Origin: a virus
Lineage: Duplodnaviria > Heunggongvirae > Uroviricota > Caudoviricetes
Virus record (IMG/VR): IMGVR_UViG_2695420523_000009
Location: 12,534 to 76,533 of that record
DNA length: 64,000 bases
Direction: 5' to 3' (one strand)
The first letter of the stretch is position 1. Each line of letters starts with the position of its first letter. Made by a program: the position numbers and the translations under genes. Positions 2,674 through 52,009 of this stretch are shown in pieces. Under the pieces are notes generated by a model. It saw nothing but the letters and a program-made list of their open reading frames with translations. It ran no database searches and was not told the origin of the DNA.

Positions 2674-3777
2674 ATGAAAAATAGCTTTGACAGAGCACGC
2701 GCTGCGGAGAACACCTCAAAAGAGGCGATTGAGTATCTCGAAAGAGCATCTCAAATGCAGGCCGTTATGATCTCGCAGGTTAGCAATGATATGAGATTCT
2801 CGGACGCATTCATGTTATTTACTCGCTTATCTCTGCTGATAACCAGACGTCGGCCAGAGATCGCTGTTCATTGTATTTTGATACATGTTTTGCCGCACAT
2901 TGCCGATGTAAAAGTAAGTGACATTAATAGGTTCATGGTGAACCAACTGGTCAACCCACTAATACTGGATGGCAAAATTGTTATGGGCCGCCGCGTTTTC
3001 TCTCTGATGAAGCAGTTCCTTAGCTGGTGCGCCTTCCAGGGGATGATAGACGTGTCACCGTTAAACGATATGTCACTAAACAAAGTTGCCGGTGGCGCAA
3101 AGCCCACACCTCGCGAGCGGAAGCTGACCGACGCAGAGGTATGGGTGTTCTGGAATATATGGGACTACTTCAATGTGTGCGCTGGTACAAAATGGGCGGC
3201 CAGGCTGTGTCTTGTATCCGCAAGACGACCTGACGAAGTACTGCGGGCTAAAAAAAGTGAGTTCAATCTTAAGCGTGGGGTTTGGAATCAAGGCAAGAGG
3301 AACAAATCTGCCCGTGAGCATTCGCTGCCTTTAAGCACATTAATGCGCACATGTATTGAAGAGTTGTTCGAATACGGTAAAGGCAGCCAGTGGCTCGTGC
3401 CTTCGAATAAAAAAATCGGGAAAGATCTTCCTATGTCTAAAGTGGCAATAGCCCAGGCATTACGTCGTATCCTGGAACGACCAGAACTGATGGAGCTTGA
3501 GCCATTTACACCCCGAGACTTGCGCCGTACTGCGCGTAGTTACTTCCCAGCATTAGGCATAAGCCAGGAGGTATCACGCAAAATCATGAACCACAGTCTT
3601 GAGGGGATAGATCGAGTCTACGACCGGCACGATTATATGGACGAGATGCGAGACGCCTTAGAAAGTTTCTCGACGTACATCGCATCAATCGTAGAGCAAC
3701 CGGATTTAGACGAAATTGACCACAAATTCAAGGGAGATCGTCTATCAACAGAGCTTATTCGTGTAAATTTTTCATAG
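2674..3777 (+). CDS. tyrosine recombinase (phage-integrase family, core-binding + catalytic domains, no arm-binding domain)
   Basis: Catalytic signature ARRPDE ... RDLRRTARS ... NHSLEGIDRVYDRHDY (R-H-R-Y); 367 aa, lacking the N-terminal arm-type DNA-binding domain of P4-like integrases. Confidence 0.85.
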   Translation: MKNSFDRARAAENTSKEAIEYLERASQMQAVMISQVSNDMRFSDAFMLFTRLSLLITRRRPEIAVHCILIHVLPHIADVKVSDINRFMVNQLVNPLILDGKIVMGRRVFSLMKQFLSWCAFQGMIDVSPLNDMSLNKVAGGAKPTPRERKLTDAEVWVFWNIWDYFNVCAGTKWAARLCLVSARRPDEVLRAKKSEFNLKRGVWNQGKRNKSAREHSLPLSTLMRTCIEELFEYGKGSQWLVPSNKKIGKDLPMSKVAIAQALRRILERPELMELEPFTPRDLRRTARSYFPALGISQEVSRKIMNHSLEGIDRVYDRHDYMDEMRDALESFSTYIASIVEQPDLDEIDHKFKGDRLSTELIRVNFS

Positions 3778-32651: not shown

Positions 32652-33124
32652 AGATGATAGCTGCTGTTGGCCGTAACTATGAGATCGGCATAGCGAACGA
32701 ACTGCCCTGGCGTTGTTCTACCGATCTGAAGCTATTTAAGAGACTCACCAAAAACGCCACTGTCGTTATGGGGCGTAAAACGATGGAAAGTCTCAAACGC
32801 CCTCTTCCAGAGCGTCATAACCTCGTTTTGACGCGCTCTCATGGCTTTGTACCAAATGGATTCTACCCTGCTGGTGTGGATGATGTGTTGCGATTACCAG
32901 AGCCTGTGTGGGTGATTGGCGGGGAACAAATTTACTCGCTATTCATGCCGCATGTTGAAGAGATTTGGCTCTCCCACATCGGCGTTGATGTGCCAAACGC
33001 CGATGCATTCTTCCCGGCAAGCATGATGCGTAATTTAGGCTTTGTGCCTGTTGAAACAGCTTATACCCAACGAGCCAGCGAGGAAGAGCCTGGCTTTTCG
33101 CAGATCGTATACAGAAGGTCGTAA
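32648..33124 (+). CDS. folA: dihydrofolate reductase
   Basis: MIAAVGRNYEIG ... LPW ... VMGRKTMESL ... VIGGEQIY pattern typical of DHFR; 158 aa; start overlaps upstream stop. Confidence 0.85.
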   Translation: MKMIAAVGRNYEIGIANELPWRCSTDLKLFKRLTKNATVVMGRKTMESLKRPLPERHNLVLTRSHGFVPNGFYPAGVDDVLRLPEPVWVIGGEQIYSLFMPHVEEIWLSHIGVDVPNADAFFPASMMRNLGFVPVETAYTQRASEEEPGFSQIVYRRS

Positions 33125-36989: not shown

Positions 36990-37480
36990 AACTATTCATA
37001 AAGTGAATTGTAAGTGCTAAGATCTGATAGTTTCCAGTCGTAGACTGGAGACTCGACCTGATGGGTGGGGGTAAGCGTCACTGGCGTCAGGTTTAAAAAA
37101 GCTCACTACCAGCGTAGAACTGGTGCCGTTTAGGTGTCGGGGAAGGGGGAACCAAAGTGAGCAGAGACAAGGGTCACTTTATGATTGTCGAGTCTGGGGG
37201 TGTTTCGAGAGGTTGAATCCAGTACTCCCCTTCATAAAGTGTGGGAAGATCTCGGTTCTGGGGTGCTGTCATCCATAACTTCCCAAGTCTAAGCTGGCAG
37301 TAGACTTAGACCATAACTTTTCAGGTTATGAAACGACCAGGTTGGTGAGAGATTTTTATACTCACCTCCCTGGGAGAGTATTACCTGAAAAGACAACCTC
37401 TCACTTCGTTCGAGGTGAACTTCACTCACTTCGTTCGTTCAGTTCAGGTTTATAAAAACCTGTTCTGGGAAGTAATTTGT
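36990..37480. other. ORF-free region, candidate structured non-coding RNA or origin element
   Basis: About 490 bp without ORFs of 60 aa or more on either strand; G-rich blocks (GGGTGGGGGTAAG, CGGGGAAGGGGGAAC), short direct repeats (CACTTCGTTCG x2). Confidence 0.3.
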
Positions 37481-37499
37481 TTATTTTAATAATTATTAA

Positions 37500-37523
37500 C
37501 ACGCACGCGTGTGCGCACGCGCG
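37500..37523. repeat. alternating purine-pyrimidine GC tract (adjacent 8-bp palindromes CACGCGTG and GTGCGCAC)
   Basis: CACGCACGCGTGTGCGCACGCGCG in the rnhA leader; Z-DNA/cruciform-prone. Confidence 0.45.
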
Positions 37524-37560
37524 AGGAAAAATCGGCGCGGCGCTTGATTCAGGAGTTTAT

Positions 37561-38151
37561 ATGACGACGAAGACACCAGCCCGATCGCAAGCAAAAACTC
37601 GCAAAAAAGACAAAAACAAAAATTCTCCCCGCACCAATCCCACAACGCCTGTCGTAGAGTTCAATCCCCAGCTTAAAACCGTGAAAATCTTTAGTGATGG
37701 CTCTTGCCTTAAAAATCCGGGCGGCCCGGGCGGTTACGGTATCGTTCTCCAGTATCGTGGTGAGGAACGCGAGTTCTCAGATGGTTTTCATAGCACCACC
37801 AATAACCGCATGGAGATGATGGGGGCACTTATCGGGCTGGAGCGTTTGAAATATCCATGCAACGTTATTTTGCACTCTGATAGCCAGTATCTGAAAAACG
37901 GCATGACACAGTGGATGAAATGGTGGAAACGCAATGGATGGATGACTTCTGACAAAAAACCGGTAAAGAATGTTGATCTGTGGAAGCGTCTGGATGAGGC
38001 CGCAAGTCGACATAATGTTCGCTGGAAGTGGGTTAAAGGTCACGCCGGGCATCGTGAAAATGAAATATGTGATCGACTCGCGAAGATCGCAGCTTTTTCA
38101 GCAGCAGATATGCCTCACAAGAAAGATATTGGTTTTGTTTATAACAAATAG
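37561..38151 (+). CDS. rnhA: ribonuclease HI
   Basis: [20 protein letters not shown] ... [11 protein letters not shown] ... HSDSQY ... [18 protein letters not shown] near-collinear with E. coli RnhA; basic 40-aa N-terminal extension; start at ATG 37561 (RBS AGGAG). Confidence 0.9.
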
Positions 38152-38252
38152 TAAGTAAGTGTTTACCTATCATTTTAAATCATGTATCTTATCGGCGTCA
38201 GGATGACAATGTGTCGGTAAGACACAGTTCCAGGATGGAACGAGAAAGGCGG

Positions 38253-38290
38253 NNNNNNNNNNNNNNNNNNNNNNNNNNNNNNNNNNNNNN
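38253..38290. other. assembly gap (run of 38 N)
   Basis: Literal N characters in the sequence. Confidence 1.
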
Positions 38291-38325
38291 CCCGCAACTC
38301 TTTCTGACACTGGATGGAGTCCACA

Positions 38326-38819
38326 TGGCACGTCAAACCTATTTCACTTCTGTAACTAAACGTCCTCGTTCTTTACGTCAAATTTTGGCCGAATTATTTA
38401 GCGGTCGTGTTATGTCACGTCTTGATGAACTAGAGACTACCGTTCGGTTGCTGAATGAACGTTTAGATAATCAAGCGTCAGTTGTTGCGAACGTGGGGGC
38501 GATTGTTGCCTCTGGTTCTTCACGCGAAGCGAAAAGTACACGGCCTTTAGTGAAGGAGAAAAACAACAAGGACAGTTCGAATGGAAAATTTTCAAAGAAA
38601 GAGGCTGAAACCAATGGCCTACGTTCTCATTATAGTTTCACTGGCGACGGTAGCCGTTCCAGCCGGCCAGAGCCTTTTGATGCCGGGTTCATCCATCACC
38701 ACACCTCCGTCGACGACAATTACCACCACTCCAGTAGAGCGTCCTGTCACTCTGGATGGGATGACGGTGGATGCGATACCTCAAGTTCATCCGGTTACTC
38801 AGGATCATGCTGTGACTAA
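38326..38819 (+). CDS. hypothetical protein (frame conflict with 38581..38832; uncertain)
   Basis: ORF continuing from the gap-spanning frame; N-terminal part looks coiled-coil-like, C-terminal part is low complexity (Ser/His/Gly/Cys). Confidence 0.3.
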
Positions 38820-38832
38820 GGCGGTTGTATGA
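38581..38832 (+). CDS. hypothetical membrane protein (alternative frame; uncertain)
   Basis: 83 aa with one TM segment; RBS AAGGA; stop overlaps next start (ATGA). Confidence 0.3.
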   Translation: MENFQRKRLKPMAYVLIIVSLATVAVPAGQSLLMPGSSITTPPSTTITTTPVERPVTLDGMTVDAIPQVHPVTQDHAVTKAVV

Positions 38833-39017
38833 ACTGGTTTTCAAATCACTTTGGAAAAATTTGGCTGGCAATTCTTGCCTTCATGGCCGCCGGTTGGGTA
38901 TCGAACATTATAAAACTTGTTTGCTCTGGCGATCTCCAGTTTCAGGCTGGCATGACCTTGGCTCGTGTAGTTGGGATTTTTGTTTTTCCAGTCGGTTCGG
39001 TACTTGGTTATTTCTGA
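38829..39017 (+). CDS. hypothetical small membrane protein
   Basis: 62 aa, two hydrophobic segments, translationally coupled to the upstream ORF. Confidence 0.4.
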   Translation: MNWFSNHFGKIWLAILAFMAAGWVSNIIKLVCSGDLQFQAGMTLARVVGIFVFPVGSVLGYF

Positions 39018-39073
39018 CGGCTGTTAGTGCATATGCATTGACCATCTTTGCGTAAGCAATTTATGAAACTATA

Positions 39074-39089
39074 AAACAACTTGTTTTGA
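39074..39089. promoter_or_regulatory. AAAACAA-N-TTGTTTT palindromic motif
   Basis: AAAACAACTTGTTTTG, 22 bp upstream of the ATG at 39111. Confidence 0.5.
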
Positions 39090-39110
39090 CAAATAACAAA
39101 AGGAAAACAC

Positions 39111-39536
39111 ATGTTAGGTTTCTTCAAAAAGAAAACTCGTAAAGCAGTTATCGAAGTCAAAAAAATGGAGAACCGTGATGCGGTTGAGGCCACCGTGTGG
39201 GGCGCGTACATGATCTCCTATGCCGACGGCACATGTGACGCAAAAGAAATTGCCATTCTTGAGAAGACAATTGCAGCTCTGCCTGCGTTTTCTCCGTTTG
39301 CTGGTGAAATTGCCCAAATGAGCGCCAATATCCGTGCTCGTTACGAAGCGTCCCCTCGTTCTGCGAATGCGCAGGCTATGCGTGAGCTGGCTGATATTGC
39401 GGGCACTCCAGAGGCGGTCGATGTTCTGTGTCTGTGCCTTGATATTGCCGACCAAGACGGTATTGGAGAACAAGAAGAGCAGGCACTGAAAAAGATAGCC
39501 CAGGCGCTTCAGTTGTCACTGGATGCTTATCTCTAA
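39111..39536 (+). CDS. TerB-like domain protein
   Basis: Helical ADG-containing repeats (AYMISYADGTCDAKEIAILEK ... LCLCLDIADQDGIGEQEEQAL) resembling the TerB fold. Confidence 0.55.
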   Translation: MLGFFKKKTRKAVIEVKKMENRDAVEATVWGAYMISYADGTCDAKEIAILEKTIAALPAFSPFAGEIAQMSANIRARYEASPRSANAQAMRELADIAGTPEAVDVLCLCLDIADQDGIGEQEEQALKKIAQALQLSLDAYL

Positions 39537-39694
39537 TGCTTGAGAGATTCCGGCTTGTGATCGTCATTGCTCTTCTGGTGATGGCGGTGTTGGTGGATTT
39601 TACGGGAAAGATGATGTCTGTCATTTCTGATGGCGTCCTCATTGGTTTGGCGATCTACTTCGCTTATCCGTTAGTTCGTAAAGCAAAGTGTTAA
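39536..39694 (+). CDS. hypothetical small membrane protein
   Basis: 52 aa ORF (below ORF-track cutoff), start overlaps TerB-like stop (TAATG); two hydrophobic segments; terminator follows. Confidence 0.4.
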   Translation: MLERFRLVIVIALLVMAVLVDFTGKMMSVISDGVLIGLAIYFAYPLVRKAKC

Positions 39695-39698
39695 TGAC

Positions 39699-39724
39699 AA
39701 GGGCCATTTGGCCCTTGTGTTTCG
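39699..39724 (+). terminator. rho-independent terminator
   Basis: AAGGGCCATTTGGCCCTT hairpin followed by GTGTTT. Confidence 0.6.
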
Positions 39725-39800
39725 TTGACCGAAATAGAGAGTTTGCACCTTTACGTTTAGCTTGCTCCCCTTATATGCCACATCACAATAAAGCCAATAA

Positions 39801-39818
39801 GAAAACAACTTGTTTAAG
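39801..39818. promoter_or_regulatory. GAAAACAA-N-TTGTTT palindromic motif
   Basis: GAAAACAACTTGTTTAAG, 16 bp upstream of the ATG at 39834. Confidence 0.5.
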
Positions 39819-39833
39819 CATTAAGGAAAACAC

Positions 39834-40400
39834 ATGTGCGAGAAATGCAAAGCAATAGCTGATGAACAAAACGCCCTATTCGAAGAAATGGATGCTAATG
39901 AACTTGTCAAAATGTTAGCCATTCTTCGAGGAATAGAAGACGTTTCCATATTTGAGAGACTGTTTACAATACTTAATTTTAATTCCACCTTTGAAGAGCC
40001 AACTCAGATTGTAGCTTTGGCACACCATTTCGGTGTTCATTACCTTGCTGAAAAAGAGAGAGCTGATAAGTTGCAAGCGACTTTGGATATGGTGAGCGAG
40101 ACTCAAGGAACTGATGACGGCAACAAAAGTGAGACGATTATTGCCAGCAAACATCGTGAAATTGCCGGGCTTAAATCCTCTCTAACGATGTTGATGTCTG
40201 CAATCAACCTTATGTCTTCTAAAGCAGGTTATAAAATGCCATCACTAAACAGCGACGATCCGATGGCCGTTCGCCAGCTTTTAGGTGCAATGGCCGACCA
40301 GCTCGACGACACAAAGAGTCGCCTTGAAGACATGATGCGGGAGCTCACGCATCGCCATGACTTGAATAAGCAGCCGCACAAAACGCAATACGCACTCTAA
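39834..40400 (+). CDS. hypothetical protein
   Basis: 188 aa, conserved start context AAGGAAAACACATG. Confidence 0.55.
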   Translation: MCEKCKAIADEQNALFEEMDANELVKMLAILRGIEDVSIFERLFTILNFNSTFEEPTQIVALAHHFGVHYLAEKERADKLQATLDMVSETQGTDDGNKSETIIASKHREIAGLKSSLTMLMSAINLMSSKAGYKMPSLNSDDPMAVRQLLGAMADQLDDTKSRLEDMMRELTHRHDLNKQPHKTQYAL

Positions 40401-40417
40401 TACAGCACCAGTCGACA

Positions 40418-40439
40418 GGGGGCGACAGCCCCCATTTTT
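40418..40439 (+). terminator. rho-independent terminator
   Basis: GGGGGCGACAGCCCCC hairpin followed by ATTTTT. Confidence 0.7.
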
Positions 40440-40541
40440 ACGCCTTAAATCTGCTGTAACGCCTATGAATGCAGCTTTTATGCCTTTTCAAGTTTGCGAT
40501 AATTACACCAATCAGAAAACAAATTATTTAATGGTGTAATT

Positions 40542-42227
40542 ATGAATACAGCCCTTTCCATCATCGACGATGCCAGCTCAAACACGGCTATCGACTATCG
40601 TCAGGAAATGAATGTCATCCACGAAATCGTGGCCGAGTGCGAGAAAGAGATCGCCTTCATGTATCAGGTACACGACTTCGTTTATGGCGACGAACGCCAC
40701 AACATGATTAATCGCCTGCTGAGACTAAACCATCGACCAGATGAAGATCGCTCGCGTTTAAATCGAGGTTGGTTGGATAAAGTCGATCTGGAATGGGTGA
40801 AACAGAATATTTGGGCCGAGTACTGGAGGAAGGTCACGGACATGACTAACGTTTTGCTGATCATGCCAGCTTCCCGTCGAGATGAGTGGCGCGAGCAGTT
40901 TATAGAGGGCAAACAGGAAGTCATCAAAACTGACAGAACCGGCTACCAGATGAAGGTTAAAGAGTTCGTTGGTGTACCGGAGTTCAAAGCAGAAACGGTC
41001 ATACCCACGATGCTTAATTTACTGAATGACAGGCACAAATATCTCTCTGAGCGCGTGTATGGCTTGTTTAAGGCGCTGAGTCCTGCGCACAAGACAAATA
41101 AGACAAACGGTTTCAGCGAGCGGCTGATAATCGCTGACTGCATTTCTGATTTCTGGCGGGACAGCGTTAGCGTGAACTATCGCAAAGAGGACTACATCGA
41201 CGATCTACGTGTCTTGCTTCATTTCTTCGCGCACAAAGAATTTATTACCATCAACCGCACTGCTGAGGTGCTATCAGCTGCGTATAGGGCAAACGACTGC
41301 CAGACCGGTGACTGGATGAACGTCGATGGAAATCTGATGCGCGTGAAGATGTTCAAGAACGGCAACGTTCACTTTGAAATACATCCTGACGTGGCCTGGA
41401 AGTTGAATGAGGTGCTGGCTTACAGTATGCCTGCTGCAATCCCCGCGCCATGCCGAACTGCGCCAAAAACACGGGCACCAAAGCAGTTCGGGTTAATCCA
41501 GAAGACGATCTCCGTGCCGGTTCGCACTGCGCTTCGTGACGGGCGATTGAGCAAAGACAAAGGCGTATGGTACTTCTCTGATTCAGCTCTCCAGAAGTCG
41601 CAGGTGGAAGAGCTTGAGCGCACACTGAGCTTCATTGGCGGCGTGCAGGAGAAAAAGCACTGGCAGTTCCCGTATAACATCGGCCATACGCTAAATACGA
41701 TTGTGGCTACCGGTTTAATACCGGATACAAAATCACACCAGTTCTACCCTACCCCACGCTTGATTGCTGAGTACGTTGCAAGAGCCACTGAATTGAAGCC
41801 TGGTGAGAAGCTGTTGGAGCCTCAAGCCGGACGTGGGGATCTTCTGGCCTATATAAACGCCGATCTGGAAGATGTTACCTGCATAGAAATCGCACCTCTC
41901 TTCGCTGATATCCTGCGTGGAAAAGGGTATACGAACACGATTTGCTGCGACTTCATAAAGTGGTCTGAGGACAACGCAGGTTATCAGTTCGACAAAATCG
42001 TTATGAACCCGCCGTACTCGCTTGGTCGTCATAGAGAGCACACGCTGGCTGCGCTGGGGCATCTGAAAGTCGGCGGGCGTCTTGTAGCAGTATTGCCAGG
42101 CACTGCGCCAATACTGGACTGGATGACGATGGATAATTACGTTTATGCCAGAGGGAAGTCGTTTACCAACGAGTTTGAAGACACAGGGATCACAGTCAGC
42201 GTATACGTTTTCAAACGCGTTAAATGA
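40542..42227 (+). CDS. DNA methyltransferase (N6-adenine type) with about 380-aa N-terminal domain of unknown function
   Basis: C-terminal FYPTP, LEPQAGRGD (SAM-binding motif I-like) and IVMNPPYS (motif IV). Confidence 0.7.
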   Translation: MNTALSIIDDASSNTAIDYRQEMNVIHEIVAECEKEIAFMYQVHDFVYGDERHNMINRLLRLNHRPDEDRSRLNRGWLDKVDLEWVKQNIWAEYWRKVTDMTNVLLIMPASRRDEWREQFIEGKQEVIKTDRTGYQMKVKEFVGVPEFKAETVIPTMLNLLNDRHKYLSERVYGLFKALSPAHKTNKTNGFSERLIIADCISDFWRDSVSVNYRKEDYIDDLRVLLHFFAHKEFITINRTAEVLSAAYRANDCQTGDWMNVDGNLMRVKMFKNGNVHFEIHPDVAWKLNEVLAYSMPAAIPAPCRTAPKTRAPKQFGLIQKTISVPVRTALRDGRLSKDKGVWYFSDSALQKSQVEELERTLSFIGGVQEKKHWQFPYNIGHTLNTIVATGLIPDTKSHQFYPTPRLIAEYVARATELKPGEKLLEPQAGRGDLLAYINADLEDVTCIEIAPLFADILRGKGYTNTICCDFIKWSEDNAGYQFDKIVMNPPYSLGRHREHTLAALGHLKVGGRLVAVLPGTAPILDWMTMDNYVYARGKSFTNEFEDTGITVSVYVFKRVK

Positions 42228-42247
42228 TAGGTAAATACTTACTTAAT
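42227..42247. promoter_or_regulatory. intergenic palindrome (TAGGTA/TACTTA family)
   Basis: GATAGGTAAATACTTACTTAA. Confidence 0.35.
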
Positions 42248-42288
42248 TTGTGTAAGAATTTAGTGACTAAACGATAAGAGAAAAACAC

Positions 42289-42993
42289 ATGAACAACCTC
42301 CAGTTAGAGCATTTTAACGTCACAGGCCATTCTGATTTTCCTTTCAAGTTTACATTGAAAGGTTATGCAGAGGATGCGGTAGGCCAGATCATTATTGATA
42401 AAGGCATCGTTAAGTTTGAGGGGAATTTTGATGAATCCGCGAAAACATTCATAGACTTCGTTGCCAAACGTTGGAGCGAGCAATGGAAAGACATGGAAAA
42501 GCGCGCTAGTGAGTTTGATCGGTTCATGGATGCAATGGATACAGCAAAAGAGGCTCTTGCTGCCGGGACTCCGTTAGATCTTGAGTCACTTTTCAACGGC
42601 GAAGTGGCCTCTGCGATGTTCGCCACCATGTTCGCGGGTGAGTTCGTCCGCAGCGGTGCCAAAAACTACCTTGAGCTGGATTACAACGTCCCTGCAATTG
42701 GCGATTTCGTCGTTACCATCCAACGCAAAGAAGGTAAGACGCCAGGTGAATGCGTCGCAGAGCTTGAGGCCGTTGTGGATCAGCGTAACGGAGAGTGTGA
42801 CCGTTTGATCAACGAGCTTCATGCACTTCGGGAAGAAAGAATATGTGCGGGTAGCAATACACGTAATGCAGCGGATATCTACTTCCAGTTAGTTGAGGAA
42901 TGCCAGATTCCACCAGGTGGCTCTCTTGTCGATTACGTCAGACATTTAATGGCGGAAGTTAACTCCAGCCATAAAGATGGTGAGGTGCGCTGA
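42289..42993 (+). CDS. hypothetical protein
   Basis: 234 aa, start context AGAGAAAAACACATG. Confidence 0.55.
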   Translation: MNNLQLEHFNVTGHSDFPFKFTLKGYAEDAVGQIIIDKGIVKFEGNFDESAKTFIDFVAKRWSEQWKDMEKRASEFDRFMDAMDTAKEALAAGTPLDLESLFNGEVASAMFATMFAGEFVRSGAKNYLELDYNVPAIGDFVVTIQRKEGKTPGECVAELEAVVDQRNGECDRLINELHALREERICAGSNTRNAADIYFQLVEECQIPPGGSLVDYVRHLMAEVNSSHKDGEVR

Positions 42994-43373
42994 TGTTTGG
43001 CATTGACGCACAGCGTATAGCTGCTTTTGCAAAAAGCCCTCTTGATAATCCCTTGTCTCGTAGTGAGCAAATGGAGCTGGCAAGGCTTTTTATTCACATT
43101 CAAAAACAGGCAGACGTTTTCAATAACATGCCTAATCAACCTATTCTGGATGGTCACATCCAGATGGTCATTAACAGTCATGAGAAAGGCTGGGCTGCAA
43201 TCGTCCCCTGCACAATTACATACAGGTTGGCGAAAGAGGTTCAAGAGTTTCGAAAAGCCAGTGTCGAATCGGAGTCTACCAAAGCCGCAATAAACACTCT
43301 TATTCGCATGGGGTTCACATGGACCGGTGGAGCCTACTGGCAAGCACCTCACCCCATTTTATCCGGCAATTAG
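42993..43373 (+). CDS. hypothetical protein
   Basis: 126 aa, start overlaps upstream stop (TGATG). Confidence 0.5.
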   Translation: MFGIDAQRIAAFAKSPLDNPLSRSEQMELARLFIHIQKQADVFNNMPNQPILDGHIQMVINSHEKGWAAIVPCTITYRLAKEVQEFRKASVESESTKAAINTLIRMGFTWTGGAYWQAPHPILSGN

Positions 43374-43511
43374 ACGCTACAAATCCTTCGGCATGAATAA
43401 ATAAAGGCCATAAGTTGTGGCCTTAAATAAATTGTTTTCTACCTTTTCTTATTTGTGAAAATAAACCAGCACTTGGTAGTGCTTATGTAACAGCAAAGAA
43501 GAGAAAAACAC

Positions 43512-44012
43512 ATGAGTAACAAAATCGAAAACCCCGTAGTTCTCATTCACAAGCGTGAGAACCACGACTCCTATGCGGTGGCGATCACCAATGGGAGTCA
43601 CGATTATTACGATGGTCTGCTAATGGCCTCAGTGTCGCCTGATGAGGCAGACAACTCTTTTGCCGTCTTCGCTATGGTTGGTTACTACATGGCTGCCGAA
43701 ATTGAGAAGTTGCGGGCGCAGAGAGACGCATTAGCGGCGGAGAATGCAGCCCTGAAAGAATCTGAGCGAGCATTCGATGAGATGTGTGCCGACGAACACG
43801 GAGATAATTGGGTTAGCGAATTAACGGAGACTCCAGCCACCGATGCTTTTCTGGCTGAAGTACGTGCGCAAGGCGTGGATATGGCTCGTAACGCGATGAT
43901 TGATTTTGTTGATGGTGAAGTTGGGCCAAACAAGAACGTTCCGGGGCTGATTAGAGGCGCAGAGATATGCGTAAGTATTGCTGAACAGCTTCGTAAAGGA
44001 GTCGAAGAGTGA
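43512..44012 (+). CDS. hypothetical protein
   Basis: 166 aa, start context AGAGAAAAACACATG. Confidence 0.55.
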   Translation: MSNKIENPVVLIHKRENHDSYAVAITNGSHDYYDGLLMASVSPDEADNSFAVFAMVGYYMAAEIEKLRAQRDALAAENAALKESERAFDEMCADEHGDNWVSELTETPATDAFLAEVRAQGVDMARNAMIDFVDGEVGPNKNVPGLIRGAEICVSIAEQLRKGVEE

Positions 44013-44230
44013 ATAAAGCAGAGTTATTTCAGAAAATATCGGCTCTCGCGACTGAATGCCACGCTATAGCATCTGAGTTTGATGTTGGCGATGAACGAAC
44101 CGAGATGTTCGAAATATACAGTGTGCTGCGCAATCTCTGTCGGCGTGGCTACGCCACTCAAGTAGGGCGAATGACTAACCCACTACTCTCATCCTGTGAT
44201 GAGGATGACTCGGATGAGGATGACGAATGA
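44009..44230 (+). CDS. hypothetical protein (acidic C-terminus)
   Basis: 73 aa, GTG start overlapping upstream stop. Confidence 0.4.
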   Translation: MNKAELFQKISALATECHAIASEFDVGDERTEMFEIYSVLRNLCRRGYATQVGRMTNPLLSSCDEDDSDEDDE

Positions 44231-44898
44231 TGCATAAATCAGTAGCCGGTGAGTTTCAGAAGGAAGTCGATAATACCACTGATCTATTGGACGATATTTT
44301 AAGCATTCTCGCGCTGCTTGAGGCTGGCGATTGGTCAGAACATTGCACTAAAACAGAGCTAGGCGGTCGGCTTGAAAGAGAGATTACACGACTTATTGGT
44401 GATGCGCAGGAAGCTACAGTCACTAGTTATGAGTTAATCGCTGAAGCCTGGCGTTTGATGGATGGACAAGATCCTAAAACCAGCGATTGGCATAGCAAGG
44501 CTTCGAAGTATTTAAATTCCGATAGGGTAGAAAAAGTTGATGATGTGAAACCGAAGCCAGTAGACCACGGTTTCCGCGATAACTGCGAATGCTCTAGTTG
44601 CCAGACCACGGCCCGTATTTGTTCCGAATTGACAGATAAGTCCAGCCTAATCTACGAAGTTAATGTAGGCGGTAATACATGGGTCGAATGCACAAGAGCT
44701 GCATACGTAAGAGCAAAAGACAAGGGTGAATTAACCAGAGTTGTTGCCCATCACCCAAATAATGAGCTTAAAGATCACCAGATTAGAGAACTGGTGAATG
44801 AGTTGCGGGATATTGCGGTTCAGTACCACGGAACGCAGCAATTGCGGGAGAAAATTGCCAGAGCAGTGAACAACTCAATTAGATCAGAAAGTATGTAG
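44227..44898 (+). CDS. hypothetical protein
   Basis: 223 aa, overlapping start/stop with upstream gene. Confidence 0.5.
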   Translation: MMHKSVAGEFQKEVDNTTDLLDDILSILALLEAGDWSEHCTKTELGGRLEREITRLIGDAQEATVTSYELIAEAWRLMDGQDPKTSDWHSKASKYLNSDRVEKVDDVKPKPVDHGFRDNCECSSCQTTARICSELTDKSSLIYEVNVGGNTWVECTRAAYVRAKDKGELTRVVAHHPNNELKDHQIRELVNELRDIAVQYHGTQQLREKIARAVNNSIRSESM

Positions 44899-45334
44899 TC
44901 AATACAATAAAATGGCCCCATTTGGATGGGGCCGGTAACAACTAGCATTATGGGCGCTGGTTGACGTACTCAATGATCGCTTCGATGATTGCGAACATAG
45001 GCGGCACGATTTTGAAAAGTAAGTTAAGCACTATAGGCCTCACTTAGTTTTATCGCACCTAGCTGCAAATACCTTTGAGCTTGCCTTTGCAGTTGCAATA
45101 TCTGTAGTCGCCAGATACTTACGGCACGATTTCGAGTTAAGGTAAGGTTTTAGAGTCACCAAAAACCTGGACTTAAATCTTCTTTGAGAACAACGATGTT
45201 TGGTAAATGGTCATTATTACCTAGCATGACGGCTCAACGTTTCTTGATGAATCCAGTACATTCGGTTAATCTTAGCTCAGTCGCCAGATACTTATGGCTC
45301 AGGAACAGAGGCGCAAACTCTGTTTCCTTTTAAA

Positions 45335-45363
45335 AAGCCCAGCCTAGTCAACTGGGCTTTTTT
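45335..45363. terminator. bidirectional rho-independent terminator
   Basis: AGCCCAG ... CTGGGCT stem flanked by AAAAA on the left and TTTTTT on the right. Confidence 0.6.
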
Positions 45364-45658
45364 AATGTCCGTTTTTAACCAAATGTACCCACAATACCGC
45401 AACATCAGTGTCTTGCGAATTAAGATAGGATTTATAGAGACTATGTGCAAGTGCATAACTTTGTGGATAACTCGTAAAGGAAAAAGTGGTTTCCGCGGAC
45501 ATTAGTTCAGACAAGGAGTCTGGGAAAGTCAATGGGAAGTAAAAATTTGTTAAAAATAACGTTTGTTGGAATTGTATATATTTATGCCTTTCAATAGTTA
45601 GCATCTTATTAACATCTTTTTTAAGAGATAGAGTTCAAAAATATATAGCTTCAACATA

Positions 45659-45678
45659 TACTGTATGCATATACAGTA
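45659..45678 (+). promoter_or_regulatory. LexA (SOS) box
   Basis: TACTGTATGCATATACAGTA matches the CTGT-N8-ACAG consensus; 17 bp upstream of the UmuD'-like start. Confidence 0.8.
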
Positions 45679-45694
45679 TTAAGAGGCGAGTATT

Positions 45695-46084
45695 ATGGGC
45701 TTCCCTTCTCCTGCGGCGGATTATGCTGAGAGCCGTATTTCTCTTGATCAGCAGATAATTAGACATCCTTCAGCGACCTACTTCATGAGGGCGGCTGATA
45801 GTCATCATCGTGAGGGAATATTGCAGGGTGCATTGCTGGTGGTCGATTCCTCACTGACTCCTGTTGATGGATCTCTTCTTGTATGTGCTCTGGATGGGGA
45901 ATATCGCGTAAAAAGATACCGGAAGTATCCACGTCAGCATCTGGAGGATTTAAGAACTGGTAAGAAGGAAGCATTGCCAAAGGATGATGATGGATGCACG
46001 GGCAGCAATGCCGTGTTTGGTGTGATCACTCACATTATCAACGACGCAAGAAGTGGCGAGTTTGATGATTGTCCTGTGATGTAG
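45695..46084 (+). CDS. UmuD'-like protein (S24 peptidase family; pre-processed UmuD analogue, HumD-like)
   Basis: Starts MGFPSPAADY, equivalent to UmuD just after its Cys24/Gly25 cleavage site; HPSATYF, DS (Ser) and VK (Lys) catalytic positions retained; RBS AAGAGG; SOS box upstream. Confidence 0.75.
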   Translation: MGFPSPAADYAESRISLDQQIIRHPSATYFMRAADSHHREGILQGALLVVDSSLTPVDGSLLVCALDGEYRVKRYRKYPRQHLEDLRTGKKEALPKDDDGCTGSNAVFGVITHIINDARSGEFDDCPVM

Positions 46085-46096
46085 GAGAACTGTTTA

Positions 46097-46121
46097 GGTG
46101 GTGCATTGCACCACCTTTTTA
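46097..46121 (+). terminator. rho-independent terminator
   Basis: GGTGGTGCATTGCACCACC hairpin followed by TTTTTA, abutting the mrp stop codon. Confidence 0.65.
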
Positions 46122-47222
46122 TCACACTGCGCGGAATGCGATTTCGCCAGGTATTACTTCACCTTGCCAATACATTTGGGCAGCAACGCGATCTGCGAGG
46201 TCACGATAAATAGCCGTAAATTCGCTATCTGGACGACTAATAACGGTTGGTGTTCCGTTATCCAGATCTTCACGAAGAGAGATATGAAGTGGCATTTGGC
46301 CTAACAACTGCGTGTTGTATTTCTCGGCCAGTTTCTGTGCGCCACCGGTGCCAAAAATTGGCTCGTGATGACCGCAGTTACTGCAAATATGCACACTCAT
46401 GTTTTCGACGATACCTAGTACCGGCACTTCGACTTTTTCGAACATCACAATGCCTTTCTTCGCATCGATCAGCGCGATGTCTTGCGGCGTAGTTACCACA
46501 ACCGCACCAGTTACAGGAATGTTCTGCGCCAGCGTCAACTGAATATCACCAGTGCCCGGCGGCATATCGAGAACGAGATAGTCCAGATCAGGCCATAGAG
46601 TTTCCTGCAACATCTGCATCAGCGCCTTGCTGGCCATCGGTCCACGCCACACCATTGCATTGTCGTCGGTGACCAGATAACCAATAGAGTTGGTTGCCAG
46701 GCCATGAGACATGATAGGTGCCATGTGAGTACCGTCAGGTGAGGTTGGACGTTGGTTTTCCGCGCCCAGCATGGTTGGAATTGATGGACCATAGATATCG
46801 GCATCCAAAATACCAACTTTCGCACCTTCAGCAGCCAAAGCCAGTGCCAAGTTTACTGCTGTGGACGATTTGCCTACACCGCCCTTGCCTGAGCTTACGG
46901 CGATAATATTCTTAACACCATTAATGCCTGGTTGGTTTTTGACGCGCTTAAGCGTGGCAATGTTGTACGACAGCTTCCAGTCAATAGCCTTTGCGCCAGT
47001 GATACGGAGCAGATCACCACTACATTGCTCTTTCAGGTCTTCAAAAGGCTTATTCCACACGAAAGGCATGATTAGTTCGACATGCAGTGTGTCATCCATC
47101 AACGCAACATGGTGTAACGCTTTAAGCGTAGTCAGGTTGTGTTTCAGGGTTGGGTGCTGAAAATTAGCCAGCGTACCGGCTACCATTGCTCTCAGGGCAT
47201 CCGGCGATTTGGACTCGCTCAT
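46122..47222 (-). CDS. mrp: Fe-S cluster carrier ATPase Mrp/ApbC
   Basis: Protein essentially identical to E. coli Mrp as recalled (GKGGVGKSSTAVNLALALA, CSNCGHHEPIFG); RBS AAGGAG. Confidence 0.95.
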   Translation of the reverse strand: MSESKSPDALRAMVAGTLANFQHPTLKHNLTTLKALHHVALMDDTLHVELIMPFVWNKPFEDLKEQCSGDLLRITGAKAIDWKLSYNIATLKRVKNQPGINGVKNIIAVSSGKGGVGKSSTAVNLALALAAEGAKVGILDADIYGPSIPTMLGAENQRPTSPDGTHMAPIMSHGLATNSIGYLVTDDNAMVWRGPMASKALMQMLQETLWPDLDYLVLDMPPGTGDIQLTLAQNIPVTGAVVVTTPQDIALIDAKKGIVMFEKVEVPVLGIVENMSVHICSNCGHHEPIFGTGGAQKLAEKYNTQLLGQMPLHISLREDLDNGTPTVISRPDSEFTAIYRDLADRVAAQMYWQGEVIPGEIAFRAV

Positions 47223-47379
47223 CCCGTCTCCTTTATTTTAATTTGCGCAATTGTCGCCTTGTAGTGTACTCCAGCTGCGACATTTAATCATTTATGAGAA
47301 ATGCTGTTATCACATGGCAGACATAAGGCCATTTTGTTACTATCAAGCCCCTTTTCACTACAAAGAAGTAATGCCTACT

Positions 47380-49413
47380 ATGACCCAAGTCGCGAAGAAA
47401 ATTCTGGTGACGTGCGCGCTGCCGTACGCTAACGGCTCAATCCACCTCGGCCATATGCTGGAGCACATCCAGGCTGATGTCTGGGTTCGTTACCAGCGAA
47501 TGCGCGGCCACGAGGTTAATTTCATCTGTGCCGACGATGCCCACGGTACGCCGATCATGCTGAAAGCACAGCAACTTGGTATCACACCGGAGCAGATGAT
47601 TGGCGAAATGAGTCAGGAACACCAGACTGATTTCGCAGGCTTTAACATCAGCTATGACAACTATCACTCGACGCACAGCGAAGAGAACCGTCAGTTGTCT
47701 GAGCTTATCTATACTCGCCTGAAAGAGAACGGTTTTATTAAAAATCGCACTATCTCTCAGTTGTACGACCCGGAAAAAGGCATGTTCCTGCCGGATCGTT
47801 TTGTGAAAGGCACCTGCCCGAAATGTAAAGCGCCAGATCAATACGGCGATAACTGTGAAGTTTGCGGCGCGACCTACAGCCCGACTGAACTGATCGAGCC
47901 GAAATCGGTGGTTTCTGGTGCTACCCCGGTAATGCGTGATTCTGAACACTTCTTCTTTGATCTGCCCTCTTTCAGCGAAATGTTGCAGGCATGGACCCGC
48001 AGCGGTGCGTTGCAGGAGCAGGTGGCAAACAAAATGCAGGAGTGGTTTGAATCTGGTCTGCAACAGTGGGATATCTCCCGCGACGCACCTTACTTCGGTT
48101 TTGAAATTCCGAACGCGCCGGGCAAATATTTCTACGTCTGGCTGGACGCACCGATTGGCTACATGGGTTCCTTCAAGAATCTGTGCGACAAACGCGGCGA
48201 CACTACCAGCTTCGACGAATACTGGAAGAAAGACTCCACCGCCGAGCTGTACCACTTCATCGGTAAAGATATCGTTTACTTCCACAGCCTGTTCTGGCCT
48301 GCCATGCTGGAAGGCAGCAACTTCCGCAAGCCGACCAACCTGTTTGTTCATGGCTATGTGACGGTGAACGGCGCGAAGATGTCTAAGTCTCGCGGTACCT
48401 TTATTAAAGCCAGCACCTGGCTGAATCATTTTGACGCTGACAGCCTGCGTTACTACTACACTGCGAAACTCTCTTCGCGCATTGATGATATCGATCTCAA
48501 CCTGGAGGATTTCGTTCAGCGCGTGAATGCCGATATCGTGAACAAAGTGGTGAATCTGGCGTCCCGTAACGCGGGCTTTATCAATAAGCGTTTTGACGGT
48601 GTGCTGGCAGGCGAACTGGCTGACCCGCAACTGTACAAAACCTTTACTGATGCCGCTGAAGTGATTGGTGAAGCATGGGAAAGCCGCGAATTTGGTAAAG
48701 CGATTCGTGAAATCATGGCGCTGGCTGATCTGGCTAACCGCTATGTCGATGAACAGGCTCCGTGGGTGGTGGCGAAGCAGGAAGGACGCGATGCCGATCT
48801 GCAGGCGATTTGCTCTATGGGCATTAACCTGTTCCGCGTGCTGATGACGTACCTGAAACCGGTACTGCCGAAACTGACTGAACGTGCAGAAGCATTCCTG
48901 AATACAGAACTGACCTGGGATGGTATCCAGCAACCGCTGCTGGGCCATAAAGTGAATCCGTTCAAGGCACTGTATAACCGTATCGATATGAAACAGGTGG
49001 AAGCACTGGTGGAAGCATCCAAAGAAGAAGTGAAAGCCACAGCTGCACCGGTAACTGGCCCACTGGCTGACGACCCGATTCAGGAAACCATCACCTTTGA
49101 CGACTTCGCCAAAGTTGACCTGCGTGTGGCGCTGATTGAAAACGCGGAGTTTGTCGAAGGTTCTGACAAACTGCTGCGCCTGACGCTGGATCTCGGTGGT
49201 GAAAAGCGTAATGTCTTCTCAGGCATCCGTTCCGCTTATCCAGATCCACAGGCACTGATTGGTCGTCACACCATTATGGTGGCTAACCTGGCTCCGCGTA
49301 AAATGCGCTTCGGTATCTCTGAAGGCATGGTGATGGCTGCTGGCCCCGGCGGGAAAGATATCTTCCTGTTAAGCCCGGATGCCGGTGCTAAACCAGGCCA
49401 TCAGGTTAAGTAA
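47380..49413 (+). CDS. metG: methionyl-tRNA synthetase
   Basis: From [26 protein letters not shown] (HIGH motif) through KMSKS and the C-terminal tRNA-binding domain, collinear and near-identical to E. coli MetG (677 aa); start set to the internal ATG 47380. Confidence 0.97.
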
Positions 49414-49432
49414 TTAAACAACCTCTCTTCGC

Positions 49433-49461
49433 AATGCCCGGCAACACGCTGGGCATTTTCA
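49433..49461 (+). terminator. rho-independent terminator (metG)
   Basis: AATGCCC ... GGGCATT stem followed by TTTC. Confidence 0.6.
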
Positions 49462-49496
49462 TATAGACACAATCCCTCCTGATTTACACAAGCCCT

Positions 49497-49512
49497 AAAA
49501 CAATTTGTTTTC
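49497..49512. promoter_or_regulatory. AAAACAA-N-TTGTTTTC palindromic motif (copy 1)
   Basis: AAAACAATTTGTTTTC, near-perfect palindrome. Confidence 0.5.
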
Positions 49513-49546
49513 TACCTTTTGTTGATTGAGATAATAAGCCACATAA

Positions 49547-49563
49547 GAAAACAAATTGTTTTG
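49547..49563. promoter_or_regulatory. GAAAACAA-N-TTGTTTT palindromic motif (copy 2)
   Basis: GAAAACAAATTGTTTTG, 12 bp upstream of the ATG at 49575. Confidence 0.5.
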
Positions 49564-49574
49564 GAGTGGTTGAA

Positions 49575-49874
49575 ATGTTGAACATTACCCAAGCCTACCA
49601 GGTGGCATTGATCAGTTCATCTCATACATCAGAGGAAGATGCTCGCCGATTCATGATCGCAAGCAATGAGCTGGATTGGGTTTCACAAATTGACGGCGGT
49701 TGTATTGTCCACGCCGGGTTACAGGATGATGTCTGGAAAGAGGACTTGCGTCGATATGGTATATCCGAAGGCGCGATTGCTAACATTCAGAAAGTACTTG
49801 ATGTAGGCTTTGACTCTGTACATTTTGATTGTGGTGCACCGGTCGTTGAAGGGCTAGAGTGCTGGCAATGGTAA
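49575..49874 (+). CDS. hypothetical protein
   Basis: 99 aa from ATG 49575 (RBS GGAGTGG); ORF-track start 49566 is a GTG inside the RBS. Confidence 0.5.
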   Translation: MLNITQAYQVALISSSHTSEEDARRFMIASNELDWVSQIDGGCIVHAGLQDDVWKEDLRRYGISEGAIANIQKVLDVGFDSVHFDCGAPVVEGLECWQW

Positions 49875-49910
49875 TCCGGCAATCGCTTCATACTAGACAA
49901 CGGAGAATTT

Positions 49911-50096
49911 ATGCTTAAAGAAGACTCATATCTACTAAAGGCGCTTGAAATGCGTGGCGTTGAACCTACAGTGAAAAACGCTCACGATATCTACCTTCAG
50001 TTTTCACCGGAGCTGAAACGGTTCATAAATCAATACGGGGTTAATGACTCAAGTGTTAAAGCAATGATAGATGATGAATTAGACCATCTCATCTAA
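49911..50096 (+). CDS. hypothetical protein
   Basis: 61 aa, RBS GGAG. Confidence 0.4.
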   Translation: MLKEDSYLLKALEMRGVEPTVKNAHDIYLQFSPELKRFINQYGVNDSSVKAMIDDELDHLI

Positions 50097-50248
50097 TCGT
50101 TTCCTATGATAATGGTTTTCACTTTGAGATTGTTATTTTTCATAGCTAAAGCTGATGTTTGTGGAAGGTGAATTGATAAACGGATGCGTATTTAGGTTAT
50201 ACAAGTGAGAAAATTGATAATATATAAACGCGATTTTTATGTGATGGA

Positions 50249-50818
50249 ATGGATGTGATGGAAACCCAGAACCAACAAACAAAACCTCTGAATAACATTT
50301 ATGCGTGGATTCTAGCGTTCATGCCTTTCTTCTTTGGAGTATCGCCGGAAGAGTATACCAATTACGCTATTATAATTGGGGGTGTAACTACCATCGGTTT
50401 GTTAGTAGCTGACAGAATGGCTCTATCGGAGTCTGGCTGTGAACCACCTTCAATTCTATGGGGGGTATTCCTCCTGCCTGTCTATCTCTGGAAGCGCGCG
50501 ACTATTACAAAAGGCAGCAGAGTGCCATTTATCATAATCGTTGCGTCGCTGGCTTGGATTATCTTCATCGGCATCCCACACAAGGACGAGGTTGCTCTTG
50601 AAGAAGCAGCCTGCCCTCTCGTGACAACTATTCTGAAAGAGAATAACGGTTCGACTGCACCAAAATGTATGAAGGTGACAATAGAGGACAAGGTGACGGA
50701 TAAGTTCTATAGAGCAACGGCTACACTAGACAATGGTAATGACATTAACATTACTCTGGAACTTACCGGCGACAGGAACTTCTACGTCCGTGTTCCAAAT
50801 GTTTATCTGAACAACTAA
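50249..50818 (+). CDS. hypothetical membrane protein
   Basis: 189 aa with 3-4 hydrophobic segments; preceded by an AT-rich spacer. Confidence 0.5.
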   Translation: MDVMETQNQQTKPLNNIYAWILAFMPFFFGVSPEEYTNYAIIIGGVTTIGLLVADRMALSESGCEPPSILWGVFLLPVYLWKRATITKGSRVPFIIIVASLAWIIFIGIPHKDEVALEEAACPLVTTILKENNGSTAPKCMKVTIEDKVTDKFYRATATLDNGNDINITLELTGDRNFYVRVPNVYLNN

Positions 50819-50939
50819 CGGTTGCAACTCATTGATAATGGCGGTCACAATTTGATTCTTTTCTATAAGAATCCGTTGATCGCCACTACTCCCTTTCCAT
50901 ACCCGCAATCACATCCTTAAATATCAATAAGTTATAGTT

Positions 50940-51700
50940 TTTATACAATCAAGAAAACAACTGAATAACAGATCAACGAAACATCAACGCTTTCACCCGA
51001 TTTGGTCTAAAAAATTGACGTTTTCACACATCACTTCTTATACCCGTAATTCTACGCAGCAGACAGCGCCACAGCGTCCAATTTTCACCACAGACGACCC
51101 AACACACTACCAACAAAAACACACGCTCAAAATCGCTCCCGTTGCGTTACACAACCATATAAACAACTTATTTTCAGGCATAACAAAACAACTAAATAAC
51201 ACACATGCCATTCCCAAAAACAACCAACCTCTTTATGGCAGGCTACCGAAAAGACCCACCTCTTCTCCCCAGGCTACCGGACAGCCAACCTAACTTTCAC
51301 AGGCAATCCGAAAACATTCATACGCGCAATACCCACGACACGCCATTACCCAAACAGCGAAGAAACACCAGAATCACTGAAACCCCAACGAAGCCTGTAA
51401 CCACAAGGATTCTCTCAATCCCAAAAGACACGAAACATAACAATCACGGGAAACGCCATTACCCAATACACGAATAACTACAAAAGCCCTTCACGCACTC
51501 CAGACAAACAACTCAAACACAACAACGAAAGGAATCGCCCACCTGCCATTACTCCATACATGGAGAAGAACAATCACCAAAACGACGAGAACACCCCATA
51601 GAAGAACCACCGCAAAACGAACGAAACCACATACACCGACAGAGAAACAACACACCCAATTCACCAACAGAAATAGTCGCCGTATAGAACATTCTGGAAG
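50940..51700 (+). other. A+C-rich, G/T-poor non-coding tract (strand-asymmetric)
   Basis: Top strand dominated by A and C with few G (e.g. CAACACACTACCAACAAAAACACACGC); the ORFs called here are composition artefacts with no RBS. Confidence 0.6.
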
Positions 51701-51875
51701 GAGTGAGCATTAACGCCTATAGAGAGGTTGAGACAGAAAAACACAACATGTATAGCGAAGAAGCCAGGTATGTATAAGTGGGGAGGGAAGGAGGGGTGTC
51801 GCCTCCTTTTTCGTATTTATTCAACTCCTGATTTTATCCCCCCGTAACACCCCTACGGTCAGTCTTCGGTCCATA

Positions 51876-52009
51876 CAGGGAAAAGGTTGCATCCCGCTAC
51901 AGAAACGGCTGGGTTGCCTTCGGGGAACGGCTGGGGATTTTCAGGGAAACGGTCGAGTTGCCTGTGTGGATTTCGGGAAAAGGCTCGATGCCGGTTCAGG
52001 AACGGCGGC
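51876..52009. repeat. direct-repeat array, GGGAAACGG family, about 22-bp periodicity (array 1)
   Basis: Six copies (CAGGGAAAAGG, CAGAAACGGCTGG, CGGGGAACGGCTGG, CAGGGAAACGG, TCGGGAAAAGG, CAGGAACGG) at 21-22 bp spacing (one 31 bp); TGTGGAT DnaA-box-like core at about 51965. Confidence 0.6.

Follow-up and report, generated by a model that had tools for sequence, protein, structure and literature searches.

A stand-alone humD gene behind a LexA box in an SSU5-like phage-plasmid

The humD gene, its start and its LexA box

We describe humD, a gene for an arm-less UmuD'-like protein of the HumD family, together with the signals that surround it in a 64,000-nucleotide stretch of the Caudoviricetes record IMGVR_UViG_2695420523_000009 (positions 12,534 to 76,533 of that record). 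The whole of this stretch is referred to as the window, and coordinates are counted from its first letter. The coding sequence lies on the plus strand at 45695..46084 and comprises 129 codons plus a stop; the encoded protein starts MGFPSPAADY. Upstream is a 20-bp LexA (SOS) box, TACTGTATGCATATACAGTA (45659-45678, no strand assigned), with perfect 8-bp inverted arms, TACTGTAT and ATACAGTA. Between box and gene the plus strand reads AAGAGG (45681..45686), a Shine-Dalgarno-like motif 8 nt before the ATG as judged from the sequence, and an intrinsic terminator (46096..46121, plus strand), consisting of a 9-bp GC-rich stem (AGGTGGTGC/GCACCACCT), a 3-nt loop and TTTTT, begins 12 nt past the humD stop codon.

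The protein scores 219.8 bits against the NCBIfam equivalog model NF051876, 'HumD family translesion DNA polymerase' (cut-off 120), with residues 1-129 aligned to profile positions 1-129 of 129. Pfam Peptidase_S24 (PF00717) is matched by residues 1-80 at 37.9 bits, above the gathering score of 23.3; the autoproteolytic UmuD model (NF007621 / PRK10276) gives 87 bits, short of its cut-off of 110, and the LexA model gives 27.2, below its cut-off of 110.95. The best sequence matches among solved structures are UmuD' and UmuD (PDB 1umu, E = 6.7e-23). A tblastn search of phage genomes returned Escherichia phage Cyrano at 100% identity, P1 HumD at ~92%, and N15 gp26 and phiKO2 gp23 at 68-71%, with weaker matches in lambdoid, Aeromonas and Hafnia phages. 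Compared to P1 humD the DNA is 84% identical and the protein agrees at 118 of 129 residues (91.5%); dN/dS is 0.043 at a dS near 1, where synonymous divergence is near-saturated, which implies strong purifying selection on humD. RefSeq plasmids that are 100% identical over a 901-bp query label the stretch 'HumD family translesion DNA polymerase'.

The initial annotation had described the gene as an analogue that mirrors P1 HumD. Its view of the product as a pre-activated UmuD' is supported; the relationship itself is closer than was proposed, for the gene is a HumD orthologue – HumD itself – and not a mere mimic of it. What is offered here is the correct annotation of an ordinary, already catalogued humD copy and no discovery. 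Knowledge of the family, of its regulation by SOS and of its UmuD'-like role goes back to 1999, and in public genomes the gene already receives its name from a curated model.

The position of the start codon was claimed to coincide with the self-cleavage site of UmuD, and the alignment bears this out: M1 falls on UmuD Cys24 and G2 on Gly25, the point at which UmuD is cut to UmuD'. The same start is a property of the family, a methionine occupying the Cys24-equivalent column in 113 of 116 family clusters; several longer database entries have a methionine directly before GFPSPA, which suggests that they are over-extended gene calls. Apart from the initiator, no residues precede the Gly25 equivalent, and the cleavage site, N-terminal arm and umuC operon that mark a UmuD precursor are all missing. 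Methionine aminopeptidase removes the initiator methionine when glycine follows. With glycine in second place the methionine should therefore be removed, leaving GFPSPAADY, exactly the N-terminus of UmuD'. The segment GFPSPA-D is near-invariant, making the N-terminal arm the most conserved part of HumD. An AlphaFold model of the Pol V mutasome places the arm of one UmuD' subunit at the active site of UmuC (PMC11791011), a position that fits this near-invariance.

The LexA box was judged by its match to the consensus and by comparison with annotated LexA sites. It departs from TACTG(TA)5CAGTA at two positions, both central, and agrees at the other 18 of 20. It is the sole match in the window at up to three mismatches, and none of 100 shuffled sequences gave a match. 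Sixteen nucleotides separate the box from the ATG; the distance of 17 bp given at the outset holds when counted from the end of the box to the A of the start codon, as does the description of the box as near-consensus. A sigma-70-type promoter-like site (45634..45662, plus strand; -35 TTCAAA, 17-nt spacer, -10 TATACT) reaches into the box, its -10 hexamer overlapping the first 4 nt. humD thus has a box of the CTGT-N8-ACAG type over its promoter-like site, the arrangement by which membership of the SOS regulon is recognised.

Comparison with other humD loci strengthens this picture. In phiKO2, a 20-mer identical to TACTGTATGCATATACAGTA lies inside the annotated 21-nt LexA site upstream of gp23, and the homologous place in P1 bears the annotation 'LexA binding site in the regulatory region of lxr and humD'. 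Among the related viral loci in which the humD start could be located, a LexA box stands 16-19 nt before the ATG in all 78; arm positions that are otherwise unconstrained (1, 2, 6-8, 15 and 19) are almost invariant in these boxes, and the centre is variable. The box is also found in P1, N15, phiKO2, HK639, HK140, Aeromonas phage pAEv1818 and Hafnia phage yong1, although in HK140 it precedes a two-gene operon and not the humD homologue alone; counting these seven distant phages, there are 20 distinct boxes. From such conservation we conclude that SOS control, as predicted from the boxes, is a trait of the HumD family. For P1, humD is stated to be a LexA-regulated SOS gene (PMC9603915).

At Rfam gathering thresholds no structured RNA was matched in the window. 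A second LexA-like box, TACTGTTTACTTATACAGTG (2628-2647), lies 26 nt upstream of an open reading frame (ORF) of the tyrosine-recombinase/integrase family (2674..3777, PF00589) and could tie the recombinase of the element to the SOS response. The statistics are weak: CTGT-N8-ACAG occurs three times in the window against an expectation of 0.86, and three occurrences were reached by 7 of 100 shuffles.

Pairwise alignment with P1 shows similarity from the LexA box to the humD stop codon, with unrelated flanks. By this measure, box and gene behave as a portable cassette of ~430 bp. Part of the non-coding stretch upstream of the box (45447-45633) recurs at 72-87% identity at humD loci that differ in their wider flanks, and the cassette may extend slightly upstream of the box in some lineages. 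Of 5426 complete E. coli genomes, 765 (~14%) contain the cassette, and 691 of its 804 places there are on plasmids; the carriers are mostly P1-like and SSU5-like phage-plasmids.

A short gene that lacks the first 23 umuD codons and has no umuC beside it might be taken for the debris of a umuDC operon: a umuD truncated at its 5' end after umuC was lost, and now functionless. Truncated copies do occur in some plasmids, for example in H111, which holds part of the gene only. This account is already contradicted by the conservation data, and we assign it next to no probability. A dN/dS of 0.043 against P1, at near-saturated synonymous divergence, is not that of a decaying sequence, and neither is the possession of a Shine-Dalgarno motif, a LexA box and a terminator of its own. 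The same precise start recurs in almost every family cluster; the same stand-alone arrangement is repeated in P1, N15, phiKO2, HK140, HK639 and the Aeromonas and Hafnia phages; and the cassette is spread over the 765 E. coli genomes counted above.

UmuC, the former protease site and the C-terminal tail

The window had been said to contain no umuC-like partner, and this proved correct: tblastn with E. coli UmuC found no homologue in it (best E = 5.2). Likewise, there is no Y-family polymerase or umuC among the 126 annotated features of a matching 108-kb plasmid, NZ_JBVDMJ010000004.1. A hidden umuC turned up in neither, and humD stands alone, with no cognate umuC in its operon or on its element. 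Chromosomal umuC is present in 5423 of 5426 complete E. coli genomes, and it is reasonable to conclude that the humD product must use the UmuC of its host.

In 1999 McLenigan et al. reportedly found that strains which cannot make UmuD' regain mutagenesis and UV survival when given P1 HumD; the P1 protein is also said to form dimers and to bind UmuC and RecA filaments. With 91.5% of its residues identical to that protein, the product studied here could act as follows. In an undamaged cell, host LexA would bind at 45659-45678, over the -10 element of humD, and block transcription. On DNA damage, RecA* would trigger LexA self-cleavage and the 129-aa protein would be made; removal of its initiator methionine would expose the same GFPSPAADY terminus as in UmuD'. 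HumD would in this way skip the slow, RecA*-dependent processing of UmuD to UmuD', dimerise, and, with SOS-induced UmuC of the host, RecA and ATP, form a translesion polymerase of the Pol V type. The likely benefit to the element would be earlier bypass of lesions on damaged DNA, its own or the host's, at a time when genotoxic stress also induces the phage. Pol V assembly is placed at ~45 min after SOS induction (PMC6375631); RecA*-dependent cleavage of UmuD helps to delay that assembly, and a directly made HumD would bypass that cleavage. The title of the paper by McLenigan et al. (PMID 10559166) calls P1 HumD a functional homologue of UmuD'.

By analogy with P1, then, we hold it very probable that the locus is a stand-alone, LexA-repressed humD cassette whose product works as a pre-activated UmuD' with host UmuC. 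Several points weigh against this. LexA binding, promoter use, methionine removal and UmuC binding are all things that we infer for this copy. A promoter scan of 45000-46300 found one site where 2.5 were expected by chance; only the position of the promoter-like site relative to the LexA box is informative, and its function is presumed. The AF2 (AlphaFold2) model of the protein is of low confidence, with a mean pLDDT (predicted local distance difference test score) of 60.5 and values below 50 in the tail and the N-terminal arm. Foldseek searches with it placed UmuD and UmuD' first and LexA C-terminal domains next; the model appears to confirm the UmuD'-like core only and says little about the tail. 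The element, moreover, encodes a divergent RecA-like protein (14835-15908; PF00154, 145.8 bits; only 153 bits on the bacterial RecA equivalog, for which the cut-off is 325) and a DnaE-type Pol III alpha subunit (8340-11858). Finally, a conserved C-terminal tail, to which we return below, has no counterpart in UmuD' and could mean that HumD does more than UmuD'.

The initial annotation had also recorded that the Ser/Lys dyad region is retained. On alignment S36 does fall on UmuD Ser60 and K73 on Lys97, but this does not show a working protease. The GDSM motif has decayed to ADSH, one residue being deleted, and of the 116 clusters 71 have Ser, 43 Thr and 2 Ala at position 36. K73 is kept in 114 of these clusters and E69 in 115. 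Among distant members, HK639 has Met at position 73, pAEv1818 has Ala in place of the Ser and Arg in place of the Lys, and yong1 has Arg. As read from these alignments, retention of the pair is not evidence of protease activity, and a protein that has no arm to cut would not need catalysis.

What the residues might do instead is suggested by the Pol V model, in which S36, T71 and K73 of UmuD' hold the carboxylate of K422, the residue that ends UmuC, and E69 holds the side chain of this lysine (PMC11791011). In UmuD numbering these are S60, T95, K97 and E93; the aligned HumD residues are S36, R71, K73 and E69. Most likely, if the model is a guide, Ser/Thr36, Glu69 and Lys73 hold the UmuC C-terminus rather than catalyse cleavage. 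The occurrence of a hydroxyl residue of either kind at position 36 would suit hydrogen bonding better than nucleophilic attack, a point that itself leans on the in-silico model.

The match to Pfam Peptidase_S24 and the alignment of S36 and K73 with the catalytic residues of UmuD invite another view, that the protein is an active, self-cleaving S24 peptidase or a regulator of the LexA/CI kind with a catalytic Ser/Lys pair; some database records indeed name relatives 'LexA family transcriptional regulator'. We consider this highly improbable. The protein has neither an N-terminal DNA-binding domain nor a cleavage site, its start being the UmuD cut point itself, and it scores under the cut-offs of both the LexA and the autoproteolytic UmuD models. 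The degraded ADSH motif, the frequency of Thr and occasional Ala at position 36, the change of Lys to Met in HK639, and the double change of Ser to Ala and Lys to Arg in pAEv1818 likewise speak against catalysis.

The C-terminus is the part in which HumD goes beyond UmuD. Codons at 46054..46081 (plus strand) specify an extension, S-G-E-F-D-D-C-P-V-M (residues 120-129), past the UmuD end; the acidic tail peptide of HumD is ARSGEFDDCPVM. HumD proteins in general run ~10 residues longer than UmuD at this end; the added sequence, S/N-G/A-E-F-D-D-C-P-V-M, hardly varies in the 116 clusters: E122 and D124 are invariant, and F123, D125, C126, P127 and V128 nearly so. Even where the Ser/Lys pair is gone, as in the Aeromonas and Hafnia phage proteins, the tail is kept (EWDDLPVI and EFDDNPCM, respectively). 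We surveyed the representatives, at 50% identity, of a search through 1.8 billion proteins. Of 14 complete arm-less proteins, 5 have an acidic tail of this type; the 50 UmuD-type representatives that have N-terminal residues all lack it (Fisher p = 2.6e-4) and have short, basic tails instead. The literature passages on HumD that were consulted do not address this tail, and its conservation, confined to arm-less proteins, may be undescribed so far.

The C-terminus of E. coli SSB is PPMDFDDDIPF, and some HumD-family tails end EFDDTPF or FHDNLPF. The tail loosely resembles the SSB C-terminal tip, a likeness of three identical and two similar residues out of eight that we treat as a lead only. The SSB tip is described as recruiting many repair proteins, among them Pol IV (PMC9565051; PMC3401449). 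It is conceivable, if on balance unlikely, that the tail (E-F-D-D-x-P-x-M/L/I/F, acidic with a hydrophobic end) is a docking peptide that would give a HumD2-UmuC complex privileged access to stalled forks or to the protein partners of SSB, or would compete with SSB for those partners, with the old protease site kept only as a socket for the UmuC C-terminus. Both ideas, the tail as docking peptide and the re-use of the protease site as a socket, are hypotheses that would be cheap to test.

A further proposal takes the tail as a sign that HumD acts mainly through partners other than UmuC: the tail would dock to proteins that bind the SSB tip, to the replisome or to RecA filaments, and HumD would modulate replication or SOS signalling on behalf of the phage, with UmuD'-like complementation a side activity. 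It overlaps in part with the use of host UmuC and does not exclude it. Support comes from the near-invariance of xG-E-F-D-D-C-P-V-M, its survival where the Ser/Lys pair is lost, its restriction to arm-less proteins in the survey and the likeness to SSB; from the pLDDT below 50 in the tail; from dinI, which encodes a binder of RecA filaments and is the divergent neighbour in phiKO2 and HK140; and from the RecA-like protein and DnaE of the element. Five matching or similar residues of eight leave SSB-type binding conjectural, and in a model that is of low confidence throughout, a low tail pLDDT says little. Against the proposal stand the reported complementation of UmuD' by P1 HumD and its reported binding of UmuC and RecA filaments. 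The most conserved part of the protein, furthermore, is not the tail but the N-terminal arm, which the Pol V model puts at the UmuC active site. We therefore think it doubtful that UmuC is the lesser partner, and retain the pre-activated UmuD' that works with host UmuC.

The phage-plasmid and the neighbours of humD

A 901-bp segment around humD matches circular E. coli plasmids of ~108-112 kb at 100% identity. Over positions 38000-52000 of the window, Cyrano covers 91% at 96.8% identity, and Salmonella phage SSU5 is similar to part of this region (87.3%). NZ_JBVDMJ010000004.1 encodes portal, terminase, capsid, tape-measure and tail proteins alongside RepB and ParB; it also encodes a DnaB-like helicase, primase, DnaE, ligase and a RecA-like protein, as well as NrdAB, thymidylate synthase, DfrA51 and four tRNAs. 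Collinear DNA similarity is thus combined with both phage and plasmid gene sets, as in SSU5-like phage-plasmids, and the window is part of a ~108-kb SSU5-like E. coli phage-plasmid of the Cyrano/pLF82 type, not of a chromosome. Cyrano, described as identical with pLF82, is an SSU5-like phage-plasmid; it forms virions, and ciprofloxacin induces it (PMC9928086). Strain LF82 is a carrier of Cyrano.

Downstream of humD lies a pair made up of a divergent apbC (mrp; 46122-47222, minus strand; NCBIfam ApbC equivalog, 759 bits) and metG (47380-49413; Pfam MetRS domains). Whether humD belongs to the element or to a host block had been left to junction analysis. humD does belong to the element, and the neighbouring block is not host chromosome, an origin that we considered and rejected: apbC-metG lies inside the 100%-identical circular plasmids, is only ~90% identical to the E. 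coli chromosomal locus, and was found at 222 plasmid places. It is cargo inside the phage-plasmid, and a methionyl-tRNA synthetase and an Fe-S carrier of its own are unusual cargo for such an element.

On the other side of the box we looked for a divergent partner sharing the operator, as lxr does in P1 and dinI in phiKO2. The candidate, an 80-aa ORF on the minus strand (45362-45604), was rejected as a gene. It matches phrog_28987 over its full length (E = 1.5e-39), but it is not called by PGAP, and close relatives show stop codons and heavy amino-acid change; phrog_28987 probably rests on a spurious gene call.

Elsewhere in the window, the trimethoprim-resistance dihydrofolate reductase DfrA51 (32648-33124; NF047324, 338.2 bits, cut-off 322) sits in a nucleotide-metabolism block, nrdA-nrdB-thyA-dfr; dfrA50 and dfrA51 are reported in phage-plasmids (PMC12217456). 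The RNase HI gene rnhA is annotated as a frameshifted pseudogene in NZ_JBVDMJ010000004.1 (9761-10421 of the plasmid stretch designated L001), and window ORFs 37477..38151 and 38211..38819 might correspond to it.

Phage-plasmids that carry the cassette also carry resistance genes, dfrA51 in the present case. For the question of how SOS-triggering antibiotics might raise mutation rates in carriers, it matters that such elements bring a damage-inducible short cut to error-prone synthesis.

Relation to known systems

Accessory subunits resembling UmuD are known from other mobile elements. The UmuD homologues of plasmids and of integrative and conjugative elements (MucA, RumA and ImpA types) are described as such (PMC11541004; PMC8460599), and in this they are like HumD. 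They differ in being made as precursors, N-terminal arm included, from genes that share an operon with a cognate umuC homologue, and the acidic tail that marks HumD is found in none of the 50 surveyed representatives with N-terminal residues.

The nearest characterised relative is P1 HumD (AAQ14181.1), with which the present protein shares its length of 129 aa, the MGFPSPAADY start, the EFDDCPV tail, a LexA box just upstream and the lack of a umuC partner. The surroundings are different: in P1, lxr lies upstream and phd-doc downstream, whereas here a non-coding stretch lies upstream and apbC downstream, and the carrier is not P1 but an SSU5-like siphovirus phage-plasmid. The boxes themselves differ at the centre (GCATAT here, AAATGA in P1) and in their distance from the ATG (16 nt here, 19 nt in P1).

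More distant are N15 gp26, phiKO2 gp23 and the UmuD-like proteins of HK140 and HK639, arm-less proteins with an acidic tail that are 64-71% identical to the one described here. Their genes, too, stand alone behind a LexA box and are followed by a terminator, annotated directly after the humD homologues of N15 and phiKO2. These four have Thr at position 36, where Ser is found here. In these four phages and the Aeromonas phage, tail or tail-fibre genes lie immediately upstream of the homologue and partition genes or an integrase beyond it; the homologue in Hafnia phage yong1 follows tail-fibre assembly genes at the end of the record.

Two of these phages have a divergent dinI next to the locus. 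In phiKO2 (1181-1423 of stretch L087) it adjoins the humD homologue, and the LexA site is between the two. In HK140 (910-1176 of stretch L088) a LexA-like box lies between dinI and an operon of two genes, gp27 followed by the humD homologue, 282 nt before the humD start. DinI is a RecA-filament binding protein, and phages have repeatedly paired two modulators of RecA* and Pol V.

E. coli UmuD' (UmuD 25-139; PDB 1umu, 1ay9 and 1i4v) is another close counterpart. HumD shares with it the fold, the GFPSPAADY arm and LexA control, and both keep the Ser, Glu and Lys that the Pol V model sets against the UmuC C-terminus. HumD departs from UmuD' in its degraded GDSM motif, in its ~10 extra C-terminal residues and in a score below the UmuD model cut-off (87 against 110). 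The two also differ in origin: UmuD' arises when a 139-aa precursor, whose gene shares an operon with umuC (umuDC of MG1655), is cut in a RecA*-dependent reaction, whereas HumD is translated in its short form from a gene that stands alone.

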